A stretch of 64,000 bases of DNA from the NCBI GenBank assembly GCA_947053455.1, contig CAMRSV010000003.1, positions 26,315 to 90,314 on the forward strand, written 5' to 3'. Below, one piece after another: positions 54,943 through 61,529 of the stretch. Source of the DNA: an uncultured Alphaproteobacteria bacterium (GTDB lineage Bacteria > Pseudomonadota > Alphaproteobacteria > Rs-D84). Numbering within the stretch: the first letter of the stretch is position 1; every line of letters starts with the position of its first letter. A program made the translations under genes and the position numbers. Under the pieces are notes generated by a model, which was not told where the DNA came from, ran no database searches, and saw only the letters and a program-made list of their open reading frames with translations.

Positions 54943-56229
54943 TTATTTTTTTATTTCCCCGTACCATTTTTTAAGGTTTTGCCACATAATTTTTGCATTA
55001 TTTTTGAACTGGTTATAAAAATCTTCTGAAATATTGATGTTAAACAGCATCTTGGCCAGCGCAACCGTTGATGTCATAAACATCGCAATAAATATTCCCA
55101 TAAGTATAATAGTTACCAAACTGTCGTTATGCATCAACAGTCCGTCCATTAAAATGCCCGAATCGTTTTTCTCAATCGCTGTGGCAAGCGCACCCGCCCC
55201 ATCCCAGCGTCCGAAAACCGCATTCAAAAACATAACAGAAAATGTAACGAATACGCCCACCGCCGCAATCCCAAGCGTTCCAGACACAACGTCATTTATC
55301 ATCGATTGTATGTTTTTCTTGCCCGTGGGTAATATTTTCCAATCCGAAAACAACCACGACAACAGCATTATCGGCAACATTATCAAATCCATGGAAAGTT
55401 TTATAAACACCTCCAAGAAATATATAGGCACCGGCAGCAGTGCATAGAAAAATAACGCCAATATCAATGCACCGGCAAAGAAAATCGGAACATTTGGAAA
55501 AATCGGGATATCCCACATTATTTTATGCATATATTTTTCATTAAACGCCATATTAAGCATTGTCCATCCAACGGTCATCCCCAATCCCGTCATCTGGTGC
55601 GCATTGGCCACCTCGCACGCCAGATTATGCCGCAGACGCGGCGAAAACGCCCCGGACGCAGCGGACGTATCGGATACAGACACAGGGTCTGCAATCGCGG
55701 TTGCAACCACGCACTCGGCAAACTTATCGTTACCGGCAACAACACGATTAAGTGATAATCCGATGTTAAATATCGGCTCTATCGCAACGGTGGTAAGTAT
55801 ACGCGGCATCGGCGCCAACAGAACCGCCCCCACAAAAACTAACTTTATAATGTGCGTACCAAACGTACTTGTAGTTGTCCAAGCATCTTCAGTTTTACCT
55901 TCCATAAATCCGGATGTCATTTTCCATGCAAACCATATAGCCGTAAGTGCCGCCGACATTGGAAAAACGACGCGCCCAATTGCCCCATACGCGCGTGGCA
56001 ACAGACCTGACATCGTTGCCATAACATCCGAAAACATCTGACACGACCAACAGGTCGAGAAAAAATTCATTGCATCCGCCATATTGACTGGCGCCGCCGA
56101 CCGATAAATTGAAAAGCCTGCAACAACCCCAATTCCGACCAGTCCACCCACGACAAACGGAGCCACCGCCCCGGCTGCGACCGGGGCAAATGCAATAATT
56201 GCAATCCAGAACTTTTTTAACCAATTCAT
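54943..56229 (-). CDS. VirB6/TrbL-like polytopic membrane protein (paralogue 1, CWSC)
   Basis: Start reassigned to MNWLKK; multi-TM; FLEVFIKLSMDLIMLPIMLLSWLF helix matches the VirB6 conserved Pro segment. Confidence 0.68.
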   Translation of the reverse strand: MNWLKKFWIAIIAFAPVAAGAVAPFVVGGLVGIGVVAGFSIYRSAAPVNMADAMNFFSTCWSCQMFSDVMATMSGLLPRAYGAIGRVVFPMSAALTAIWFAWKMTSGFMEGKTEDAWTTTSTFGTHIIKLVFVGAVLLAPMPRILTTVAIEPIFNIGLSLNRVVAGNDKFAECVVATAIADPVSVSDTSAASGAFSPRLRHNLACEVANAHQMTGLGMTVGWTMLNMAFNEKYMHKIMWDIPIFPNVPIFFAGALILALFFYALLPVPIYFLEVFIKLSMDLIMLPIMLLSWLFSDWKILPTGKKNIQSMINDVVSGTLGIAAVGVFVTFSVMFLNAVFGRWDGAGALATAIEKNDSGILMDGLLMHNDSLVTIILMGIFIAMFMTSTVALAKMLFNINISEDFYNQFKNNAKIMWQNLKKWYGEIKK

Positions 56230-56296
56230 TGTTTTAACTATATCATATTTTGCATCAAATGTGATATAATTGAAAAGATAAATAATACGGGCGGGA

Positions 56297-57571
56297 ATGT
56301 TTTTTTTCAAACGGAGGACTTTTTTATCCATTGTTCTGGCGGCGGGATTGATATTTAATTCCGCGATGCCCGCATTTGCCGATATCGTCGACAGTTTTAA
56401 TCTGGCACCGTTTGTGCCGACGGTGCTTGATGCGCTGATGATGGTTGCCACCGGCGGATATGAATTTTTTGTAGGCAAAGGCAACGGCATCATATACATC
56501 CTGGTCTGGGGTTTTTTGGCGTTTTCACTAACATACGGTATTGCAAAAATGTATTTCCCGAAAATTGCCGGCGACCTGTTGGGGACAAGCGGGGTTGGCA
56601 CAATGATGGACGGCAAGGTAACGGCACAAAACATTATTCAAAACAATGTCATGAAACCTGTTTTGCGCGCGATTATTGCGGCGGCGGTGTTATTACAACT
56701 GCGTCCCGCATTTATGACTGAATGGCTGGTCAATCCGTTTTTGCAGGTGGGTGCAATTTACACACGCGCAATAACCGATACAATCAACACCGGCATCGCC
56801 GCACCAAAAATGGAATGCCCGCCCGAAATTGTTGAAAAAGAATGGATTTCAAAATCTTCGTGCGAATTTCTGATTCAACCCGTGGCGGACATATCGGTCG
56901 CAAACAATCAGGTTATCAAAACAGGTTTTGGCTTTATTACGCGTGGGCTGCGTGGATTGATGACGCTGGTGCCGCACGGCGGCGAAGATTTCTTGAATCT
57001 GGTCACGGGAATTTTACTGGTGACGACATTTGTCGCATCGAATCTGTTCATGGCACTGCTAATTATACAGGCGATATTTAATTTTGGTATGGCGCTGATA
57101 CTGTATCCATTTAATGTTTTGGCGTATGTTGCAAAATCCAGTGACAAATGGCTGGACATATGGCCGGCATTTTCGGGCATAACCAAGGCATTACAAAGAC
57201 TGATTATAACAATGATTGCATGTGCGTTCATATTGTGCATAAATGTTTCGGTGATACGCGCCCTGTTCCAATGGAACAGTTCCGTCTTTGTTGTTGCGGC
57301 CGGCGGCGTTGGAACCAGCAACATGCCGCAAATAGCAACCAACGCGATGGGCTTTGGCGCGCATTCAATACTGTGGTTGTCGGCGATACTGACATTTTAT
57401 TTGATGTTCCGCATCTTTGCACTGACACGCGAACAATTAAACGCGTATGTCGGCGGCGGAATGGATAACCTATATAAAAGCACAACCAATGACGCAAAGA
57501 CCATGTGGGCGGGCGCAAAAAATTTGGGCAAAAAAATCGGCACGGCCGCGGGATGGATTAAAAAGAAATGA
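56297..57571 (+). CDS. VirB6/TrbL-like protein (paralogue 2)
   Basis: Signal-like N-terminus; IIQAIFNFGMALILYPFNVLAYV. Confidence 0.65.
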   Translation: MFFFKRRTFLSIVLAAGLIFNSAMPAFADIVDSFNLAPFVPTVLDALMMVATGGYEFFVGKGNGIIYILVWGFLAFSLTYGIAKMYFPKIAGDLLGTSGVGTMMDGKVTAQNIIQNNVMKPVLRAIIAAAVLLQLRPAFMTEWLVNPFLQVGAIYTRAITDTINTGIAAPKMECPPEIVEKEWISKSSCEFLIQPVADISVANNQVIKTGFGFITRGLRGLMTLVPHGGEDFLNLVTGILLVTTFVASNLFMALLIIQAIFNFGMALILYPFNVLAYVAKSSDKWLDIWPAFSGITKALQRLIITMIACAFILCINVSVIRALFQWNSSVFVVAAGGVGTSNMPQIATNAMGFGAHSILWLSAILTFYLMFRIFALTREQLNAYVGGGMDNLYKSTTNDAKTMWAGAKNLGKKIGTAAGWIKKK

Positions 57572-60230: not shown

Positions 60231-60239
60231 GCGCCAACA

Positions 60240-61529
60240 ATGAAGTTTATTCGTAAATTTTTAATGATTGTATCTATGGGGCTGATTCTGATGGCGACGG
60301 CGCATGCGGCGACAAACATCCCGATGGGTGACATCGACCAATACGGCACATGGACAACACCGCACAATCGCGAACAATTCACCAACGCACTGACAAACGA
60401 CATGGCCGCATTCACTGACGGTTTTCAAAAACAACTGGTCAAAGATTATGTCCCGATTGAGGCGCGCGTGGGGCTGGCCTTTATGAATGCAATGACACAT
60501 GTCGGCAACATTCTGGACGGTTCCCTGGTGCGATTTGTGCTGATATTTATCATAATAGTTTACGCATTCTGGATTATGTTCGAAGCATACGGCATGATAA
60601 AGGGCGCGGGCGATGTAAAAAAACTTATACGGGAAATAATAAAAAAGGGCGCACTTATTCTTATCTGGATGCTTGTGCTGCAAATGGGTCCGGCAAAAAT
60701 ATTTATGTTGGTTGTGGGACCGGTAATAACAATCGGAACATATGTATCGGATTTGATACTAAATACAATCGCAAATACAGCGGGGGCAAATTTACCCGAC
60801 ACATGCGCGGCGGTGCGTGAATACGCCGCATTGCATACCGCGCCGGATATGATAATGGATGCGCAAATGGCGGCCGATTTGATGTGTGTTCCAACGCGTT
60901 TGTCTGGATTTTTCTATACCGCGGTGGCGGCCGGCCTGCAATGGATAATCCATGGCATAGGTCGCAGTCCATTTACGGTAATCGCCGGGCTGATATTCGT
61001 TGTAATTTTTATGATAAACATCTGGAAATTCGCGATAATGGCGCTGGGGGTGATTGCAAACCTGTTTCTGGCGGTGTTTTTACTGCCCTTCACAGCGATT
61101 GCAGAAACAATCGGTAAAACAACATACAAGGGAATTGCCGGCGACATATTCAACGGATTTTTAGGAATATTTACCACGCAATCACTGACGGCGCGCATCA
61201 CGCAGTTTGTAAATGCGGCGGTATATTTCGTATCGCTTTCGATTGTGGTCGGTGTCTGCGCAGGGATTTTATCCGGCGCCGTCACAACAAATTTGGCGGC
61301 ATCTGTTCCGTCAATTGACAGTGGCGGGTTTATAATAGTACTGCTGACCGGGGTGCTGGTTGCACACCTGGCGACACGCGCATCGGATATTGCCAAAGAC
61401 CTGGGCGGCAGTGTGGATGCGTCACTTGGTACCAAATTTGAAAATGATGTAAAATCACTGCTTGCCCGCGTATATGATACCGGCAAAGAATGGTGGAAAA
61501 TAATACGCGACGGCGAAAAGAAAAAGTAA
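60240..61529 (+). CDS. VirB6/TrbL-like protein (paralogue 5)
   Basis: IANLFLAVFLLPFTAIAETI..QFVNAAVYF; multi-TM. Confidence 0.66.
   Translation: MKFIRKFLMIVSMGLILMATAHAATNIPMGDIDQYGTWTTPHNREQFTNALTNDMAAFTDGFQKQLVKDYVPIEARVGLAFMNAMTHVGNILDGSLVRFVLIFIIIVYAFWIMFEAYGMIKGAGDVKKLIREIIKKGALILIWMLVLQMGPAKIFMLVVGPVITIGTYVSDLILNTIANTAGANLPDTCAAVREYAALHTAPDMIMDAQMAADLMCVPTRLSGFFYTAVAAGLQWIIHGIGRSPFTVIAGLIFVVIFMINIWKFAIMALGVIANLFLAVFLLPFTAIAETIGKTTYKGIAGDIFNGFLGIFTTQSLTARITQFVNAAVYFVSLSIVVGVCAGILSGAVTTNLAASVPSIDSGGFIIVLLTGVLVAHLATRASDIAKDLGGSVDASLGTKFENDVKSLLARVYDTGKEWWKIIRDGEKKK

Follow-up and report, generated by a model that had tools for sequence, protein, structure and literature searches.

Positions 54943 to 61529 of a 64-kb stretch of DNA from an uncultured alphaproteobacterium (contig CAMRSV010000003.1; "the window" hereafter means this whole stretch and not the feature under study) hold an array of five paralogous membrane protein genes, here called A to E, whose products NCBI annotates as "hypothetical." We conclude that these proteins are very likely highly divergent members of the VirB6/TrbL superfamily. 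They are probably ancient VirB6/TrbL paralogues that form the inner-membrane part of a chromosomally scattered P-type type IV secretion system (T4SS) with a VirB8-VirB9-VirB10 core. The array is an annotation-invisible variant of a known T4SS component, accompanied by a conserved partner gene, and is not a new secretion system. An earlier reading of the same DNA (the original prediction) had proposed an undescribed secretion system; that wording was too strong, as what was found agrees with a P-type T4SS that is divergent and scattered, not with a new class.

Organization of the array and features of its products

The genes are arranged in a 1+4 divergent layout, with product lengths in amino acids (aa), as follows.

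54943-56229, minus strand: paralogue A, 428 aa, divergent to B to E
56297-57571, plus strand: paralogue B, 424 aa, the most divergent member
57568-58791, plus strand: paralogue C, 407 aa, ATGA overlap with B
58788-60230, plus strand: paralogue D, 480 aa, ATGA overlap with C
60240-61529, plus strand: paralogue E, 429 aa, start 9 nt past D

This layout agrees with the original prediction of five polytopic products of 407 to 480 aa, four of them from tightly coupled genes (ATGA overlaps at the B/C and C/D junctions and a gap of 9 nt between D and E), between housekeeping flanks. The mechanically called open reading frame (ORF) of A reaches position 56634 (563 aa); since the orthologues of A (428 to 441 aa) begin at the N-terminus MNWLKK, the 428-aa protein is the likely product. 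The spacer between A and B (56230-56296; 67 bp) is AT-rich, is without a small ORF, and contains promoter-like hexamers that point both ways. It is presumed to be a bidirectional promoter region. Taken overall, the promoter scan performed no better than scans of shuffled sequences.

By hydropathy, each of the five proteins has approximately 6 to 7 hydrophobic segments and a Lys-rich C-terminal tail. Each carries a hydrophobic helix with a Pro residue, and all five strings quoted for this helix in the original prediction were found in the translations (A, LIMLPIMLL; B, LILYPFNVL; C, AFFFPLSLV; D, IIFMPLLLA; E, VFLLPFTAI). The predicted Cys pairs were likewise recovered, i.e., A and D each have a CxxC motif and a second pair, C has a CxxC motif, and B and E have a single pair apiece. 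Paralogue A has an N-terminal transmembrane (TM) segment, CWSC (C60/C63), and a second pair at C173/C205, while C has an N-terminal CWGC. Paralogue D has CFMC, two further Cys pairs, and a Cys-containing extra insert at approximately residues 340 to 410. Signal-peptide-like N-termini are present in B (…AFA/DIV; Cys pair C174/C189) and E (…AHA/A; Cys pair C189/C216). The CxxC motif of A, C, and D stands just ahead of an early hydrophobic helix, and the further Cys pair of A, B, D, and E lies in a long loop. The polytopic topology with a Cys-pair loop of approximately 80 to 100 residues is that of VirB6, as judged from hydropathy only, and the predicted topology of A to E fits a VirB6-type N-out, C-in polytopic protein.

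Paralogy and conservation

Pairwise identities among A to E range from 19 to 24%. Orthologue families of the five proteins were built from 50 metagenome loci and two loci in metagenome-assembled genomes, and their profiles were compared with hhalign. The comparisons linked A to C (98%), A to D and A to E (95% each), C to D (93%), C to E (94.5%), and D to E (93%), with alignments running nearly full length. Paralogue B was connected through E (94% over approximately 290 columns), and on this basis it belongs to the paralogue group; it also scores 185 bits with the superfamily hidden Markov model (HMM). Judged from these profile comparisons, the paralogy of A to E is beyond chance. No further VirB6-like family member was found in the window beyond the array.

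Compared with a 95%-identical relative (L001), every gene of the window array shows a ratio of nonsynonymous to synonymous substitution rates (dN/dS) of 0.05 to 0.08. On the basis of these sequence comparisons, the genes are real and under strong purifying selection, and the possibility that they are artefactual ORFs was rejected from dN/dS and conservation. The order X169(-) A(-) | B C D E(+), in which X169 is the partner gene described below, is kept in 34 complete loci, and the incomplete loci are consistent with it. No locus has dropped any one of A to E. The sole rearranged locus (L043, 5538-13407) reads E(-) D(-) | B(+) C(+) A(+) X169(+); because it keeps A with X169 and D with E, it suggests the suboperons A-X169, B-C, and D-E. 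The exact window sequence occurs in mouse-gut metagenomes, and the assemblies that yielded relatives include ones from human gut and activated sludge.

Relationship to VirB6

A pooled superfamily profile (53 sequences; Neff, 6.3) matched nine plasmid VirB6 proteins with an hhalign probability of 81% (E = 1.2e-5), and reversed-sequence controls reached 0.2%. The alignment comprises 216 collinear columns that place residues 118 to 401 of A on residues 58 to 274 of R388 TrwI, such that the Pro of LPIMLL in A is aligned with the Pro of GPLFIL in TrwI. This Pro is invariant in all five paralogues. When the cores of RvhB6c and RvhB6d were added to the canonical side, the probability rose to 89.6% (E = 1.9e-6).

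A second line of evidence is transitive. An exhaustive search of 1.84 billion protein representatives with the C-family profile matched only 94. Among 14 distant full-length relatives found with this profile, 4 match Pfam TrbL, at approximately profile positions 82 to 195, the stretch that corresponds to the Pro helix. One of these relatives, P0205, was found by the C profile at an E value of 5e-5 and scores 34.2 bits on TrbL, i.e., above the cutoff of 25.9. The family-A HMM spans the TrbL regions of P0208, P0209, and P0213, and distant relatives retain "P-A-T-R." For the family-D consensus, the top Pfam match is TrbL (E = 0.011; 15.9 bits), with residues 231 to 334 on profile positions 88 to 188; the consensuses of the other families gave nothing on Pfam TrbL. 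Remote homology to bona fide VirB6/TrbL proteins is thus detected through profiles and intermediates.

The predicted folds point in the same direction. AlphaFold2 models of C (alignment of 45 sequences; pLDDT, 58; pTM, 0.52; a low-confidence model) and E (separate alignment of 64 sequences; pLDDT, 76.6; pTM, 0.70) were compared by Foldseek with 350,542 PDB chains. For both, the top four to six matches were R388 TrwI/VirB6 chains (7o3v, 8rt9, and 8rtd; chain identity checked), with probabilities of 0.95 to 0.99 for the best of them (0.75 to 0.99 over the top four of E) and E values of 0.005 to 0.07, while the next unrelated PDB protein had a probability of approximately 0.15. The VirB6-like character claimed in the original prediction is therefore supported by the TrwI fold matches, the transitive TrbL link, and the superfamily profile (81 to 90%).

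A conserved partner gene

The array has a sixth constant member, which the original prediction had overlooked.

54365-54874, minus strand: X169, 169 aa, downstream of A, without TM segments

X169 adjoins A in the 34 complete loci as well as in the rearranged L043, and we regard it as part of the unit because this order is kept across loci. Its dN/dS is 0.08, and it contains the invariant motifs GWWGELLG and DMLAT..GT and the C-terminus GNSYLGCIGRY. Searches of Pfam, NCBIfam, and PDB (the last by profile against sequences) returned no match. X169 is probably cotranscribed with A.

Contigs of a public run (X25; guessed to be RNA, library type unverified) cover positions 54371 to 61480, i.e., X169 through E, and none lies at 53000 to 54267 in the left flank. 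Their depth is uninformative, and as hints of transcription of the cluster they are too weak to count.

The virB8-virB9-virB10 operon

Other T4SS genes were found elsewhere in the window.

4282-8947, plus strand: virB8-virB9(SPOR)-virB10 operon (Pfam VirB8, CagX, and TrbI), 46 kb upstream of the array

This finding confirms that a VirB8-VirB9-VirB10 operon is on the same chromosome piece as the array. The operon is located between nusG and yidC, and this synteny is kept in relatives. The mechanically called ORF of VirB8 (3868-4980, plus strand; 370 aa) has a TTG start and overlaps a tRNA-Trp gene (3983-4056, minus strand); since orthologues are called at 232 aa (L072 and L073), the start of VirB8 is probably near position 4282 and its size is ordinary. 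VirB9, which shares the stretch from 4998 to 8947 (plus strand) with VirB10, bears a C-terminal SPOR domain, i.e., a peptidoglycan-binding domain. The C-terminus of VirB10 (792 aa) is a Cys-rich tail (…CEDGANPDANGCCTGEIYTDMGDQGFNCCPETGGDCFPPIQ), which a relative of 76% identity (L073) shares almost unchanged. Against the NCBIfam equivalog cutoffs, VirB9 and VirB10 both fall far short. VirB9 orthologues are 75 to 91% identical. In four other species, the orthologues of VirB9 and C have identical longest-contig sizes (108896, 319606, 416943, and 78063), which suggests that the two are coresident there.

Past virB10 there are two small ORFs for non-membrane proteins (9262-9606 and 9599-10039, both plus strand) that are conserved in relatives (L073, 14337-14759 and 14899-15282). 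The mechanically longest ORF in this region (9068-9580, minus strand), which overlaps 9262-9606 on the opposite strand, is probably spurious. In the cell wall cluster, beside murG, a 449-aa ORF (40572-41921, minus strand) has in Pfam only a weak OmpA-like C-terminus (E = 0.013).

Related arrays in other lineages

Arrays of the same subfamily were recovered from other lineages.

L065, GC content 30%: five tandem genes (770/781/857/474/650 aa) with an 86-aa two-TM gene ahead
L066, GC content 28%: five tandem genes (557/678/687/514/858 aa) with an 88-aa two-TM gene ahead
L067, GC content 40%: at least five array genes, the array being cut by contig ends
L068, GC content 45%: 473/457/365/418/789 aa, i.e., four members and an interposed 365-aa gene without a family match

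These arrays resemble A to E in belonging to the same family by HMM, in comprising four to five tandem genes, and in their housekeeping context. They differ in that the proteins are bigger (437 to 955 aa) with extra N- or C-terminal domains, the copies are all on one strand, a homologue of X169 is lacking, and some members still match Pfam TrbL (the 557-aa protein of L066 is TrbL on record). L065 and L066 show positional orthology (2-2, 3-3, and 4-4), and reciprocal best matches connect A to position 2, C to position 3, and D to position 4; the best cross-lineage match of A is position 2 of L065, and the reciprocal match of D is position 4 of L066. Recent local duplications were found in L068 (genes 1 and 2; 328 bits) and L067 (genes 2 and 3; approximately 200 bits). 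Taken together, the positional orthology and the local duplications indicate an array that is old, shared within the subfamily, and still dynamic.

The 86- and 88-aa proteins encoded immediately upstream of the arrays (L065, 4967-5227; L066, 9734-10000) have two hydrophobic helices and a basic tail. They are VirB3-like in size and shape, show no similarity to R388 VirB2 or VirB3, and have no counterpart in the window. Divergent genes in L065 (1567-2829, minus strand) and L066 (7057-8142, minus strand) are mutually homologous (approximately 74 bits), non-family, and Pfam-negative; by analogy, they may represent a lineage-specific partner comparable to X169. Directly after the VirB6-like array of L065 comes the gene for a 493-aa protein that matches OmpA faintly.

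A tblastn search of 72,556 plasmids with A and P0205 found no relative. The subfamily consists of four- to five-gene arrays in uncultured gut Alphaproteobacteria and a few other lineages, and it is chromosomal only; most members have CxxC, and the canonical T-K/R..F..W is weakened.

Weighing the assignment

Several results weigh against assigning A to E to VirB6 and to a T4SS. None of the five proteins matched anything in Pfam or NCBIfam at E values of ≤1. Direct membership in PF04610, the check proposed in the original prediction, fails for all five, none of which reaches the gathering threshold of 25.9 bits; A to E therefore fail curated family membership. Three of the four TrbL-positive relatives are themselves below the Pfam cutoff. 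The C-family profile retrieved only chance photosystem matches from PDB sequences, and hhalign of each single family against the nine canonical plasmid VirB6 proteins remained at ≤1%. Within the canonical signature G-P-[IL]-F…T-[KR]-x-x-F-x-x-W, the T-K/R..F..W part is absent from A to E; a Trp follows the Pro by 6 to 18 residues in A to D, and E is without a nearby Trp. The TrwI structural matches have TM-scores of 0.23 to 0.45 and root mean square deviations of 8 to 13 Å, with no E value below 0.001, and because the TM-scores are low (≤0.45) the match of these predicted models serves as a pointer and not as proof. As for the gene complement, none of virB2, virB3, virB4, virB5, virB7, virB11, and virD4 was found in the window or, across approximately 55 loci, within 10 kb of the array, and a complete T4SS is thus not established for the organism.

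Among the profile comparisons with canonical VirB6, the pooled superfamily profile was the only one to succeed; narrower ones, such as the C alignment run against TrwI by itself with hhalign, yielded nothing significant.

The gene complement around the array confirms the observation in the original prediction that virB3 and virB4 are not adjacent to the array. The array does not stand beside other T4SS genes either, as virB8-10 is 46 kb off on the same contig. With respect to the partnership with VirB8-VirB10 that the original prediction had asserted, coresidence holds, at this distance, while a functional partnership was overstated.

Proposed role and alternative explanations

The most likely function of A to E would be to supply the inner-membrane channel or stalk-base component of a T4SS, and VirB8-VirB9(SPOR)-VirB10 would be the presumed outer-membrane and periplasmic core that they serve. 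We infer that the proteins belong to the same machine as VirB8-VirB10, and the same applies to their oligomeric state and to a secreted substrate. The five paralogues may act jointly in one mixed oligomer and not as alternatives to one another. A mixed oligomer is favored by the translational coupling of B-C-D-E, the shared divergent control with A-X169, the strict coretention of all five genes, and strong purifying selection. A more specific version, i.e., a hetero-pentameric VirB6 ring with one copy of each paralogue, such that five specialized subunits stand in place of the five-fold symmetric R388 homo-pentamer and possibly compensate for a missing VirB5, is a tentative proposal that we consider less likely than not. 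If true, it would explain the five-gene arrays of the other lineages and, independently, the five RvhB6 proteins of Rickettsia.

Within the T4SS interpretation, the proteins could instead be VirB6-type subunits that assemble as separate homo-oligomers and provide alternative stalks or platforms for each substrate, pilin, or condition. The paralogues do show strong differences in the periplasmic loops and N-termini predicted for them (B and E have a signal peptide; A, C, and D have CxxC), and the recent lineage-specific duplications in L068 and L067 imply that the copy number is not rigidly five. However, the genes are translationally coupled and share a single divergent control region, which speaks for coexpression at similar levels, all paralogues are retained in every locus, and a single VirB8-VirB9-VirB10 core is seen. 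We consider such separate assemblies rather unlikely.

A further alternative is that A to E are descendants of VirB6 that have been exapted to form, with X169, a T4SS-independent envelope complex (for transport or envelope maintenance), with VirB8-VirB10 being unrelated or relics. It would account for an array that in approximately 55 loci is never beside a T4SS gene and is always among housekeeping and cell wall genes (mraY, ftsW, murG, PBP1a, and rpmE), for a constant partner that is not a known Vir protein, for the eroded canonical VirB6 signature, and for the lack of a T4SS ATPase in the window. Against this, the VirB6 fold is known from T4SS-type machines only. In addition, the orthologues of VirB8, VirB9, and VirB10 are intact and better conserved (75 to 91% identity), so that these same genomes do maintain a T4SS core. 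Islets of T4SS genes scattered among housekeeping genes are also the normal state of the rvh system of Rickettsiales (PMC2653234). Exaptation therefore appears improbable.

That A to E are unrelated to VirB6 and represent a lineage-specific helical membrane family whose matches reflect generic TM-helix composition is quite improbable: spurious profile matches arise easily with hydrophobic proteins and the direct tests are below thresholds (no Pfam match, hhalign ≤1%, Foldseek E > 0.001, TM-score < 0.5), but two independent models rank the same PDB protein first among 350,542 chains, the superfamily match is collinear over 216 columns in motif register with reversed controls at 0.2%, one intermediate relative exceeds the curated Pfam TrbL cutoff, and the family-D consensus selects TrbL on the same profile segment.

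Implications

Of the core T4SS subunits, VirB6 is the one understood least, and why Rickettsiales keep five copies is an open question. With the array described here, common gut commensals provide a second case of five copies, which is stable in evolution and apparently unrelated to the first; similar arrays exist in other lineages. The relationship between copy number and pentamer stoichiometry thereby becomes testable by comparison. Moreover, since HMM-based T4SS detection misses A to E completely, T4SSs in abundant uncultured gut Alphaproteobacteria are likely undercalled or scored as incomplete; a new profile for annotation pipelines could be built from the A-to-E family. A search of the literature on T4SSs in gut alphaproteobacterial lineages found nothing relevant.

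Comparison with known systems

The closest parallel in copy number is the rvh T4SS of Rickettsiales. RvhB6a to RvhB6e are likewise five tandem, extremely divergent copies (approximately 80% mutual divergence there and 76 to 81% here), encoded on a chromosome in which the genes of the T4SS are dispersed between housekeeping genes. The RvhB6 proteins differ in being 674 to 1154 aa long and PF04610-positive and in following rvhB3-rvhB4a (PMC2653234), while A to E are 407 to 480 aa long, are Pfam-negative, and are without virB3 or virB4 within 10 kb; the window contains no VirB4, and the array does not follow a pair of the rvhB3-rvhB4a type. For direct comparison, we took the sequences of RvhB6a to RvhB6d from the supplement of Gillespie et al. 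2009 (PMC2653234); RvhB6e was not compared. These four carry the canonical motif (…AP[LF]FI…T[KR]..F[DN].W), which differs from the condition in A to E, and score 48.8, 40.1, 11.7, and 2.1 bits with a small canonical VirB6 HMM. None of RvhB6a to RvhB6d was matched by the superfamily HMM or by any of the five family HMMs (hmmsearch --max, E ≤ 10), and these comparisons hence gave no sign of a specific relationship to the rvh expansion. Orthology to Rickettsia RvhB6 was rejected on the same grounds. The original prediction had envisaged a convergent or a shared ancient expansion; what can be retained is that the expansion is old and shared within its own subfamily, with no detectable link to RvhB6a to RvhB6d. 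It had also placed the expansion outside Rickettsiales; public labels of the organism go no further than the class Alphaproteobacteria, and the window contains no rRNA gene. For the likeness in copy number to rvhB6, the best interpretation is either parallel evolution or a divergence so deep that it can no longer be traced.

In R388, the VirB6 pentamer is the stalk base under a VirB5 pentamer and a proposed platform for pilin assembly (PMC12981334, citing Mace et al. 2022). A to E resemble the canonical VirB6 proteins (Agrobacterium tumefaciens VirB6, R388 TrwI, and pKM101 TraD) in their polytopic character, periplasmic loop, basic C-terminal tail, and aligned central Pro helix, with VirB6 as the top structural match for two models. 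They differ in their low identity (approximately 13%), an extra N-terminal segment, and CxxC in three of the five proteins; the canonical proteins are present in one copy and those here in five, outside a virB operon and without plasmid relatives.

In the Trw system of Bartonella, trwJ-trwI-trwH and trwL are amplified, such that the operon contains repeats of whole VirB5-VirB6-VirB7 units, with comparatively little difference among the copies. The two cases are alike in the multiplication of VirB6 within one T4SS. In the array described here, by contrast, multiplication is confined to the VirB6-like gene, whose copies are ancient.

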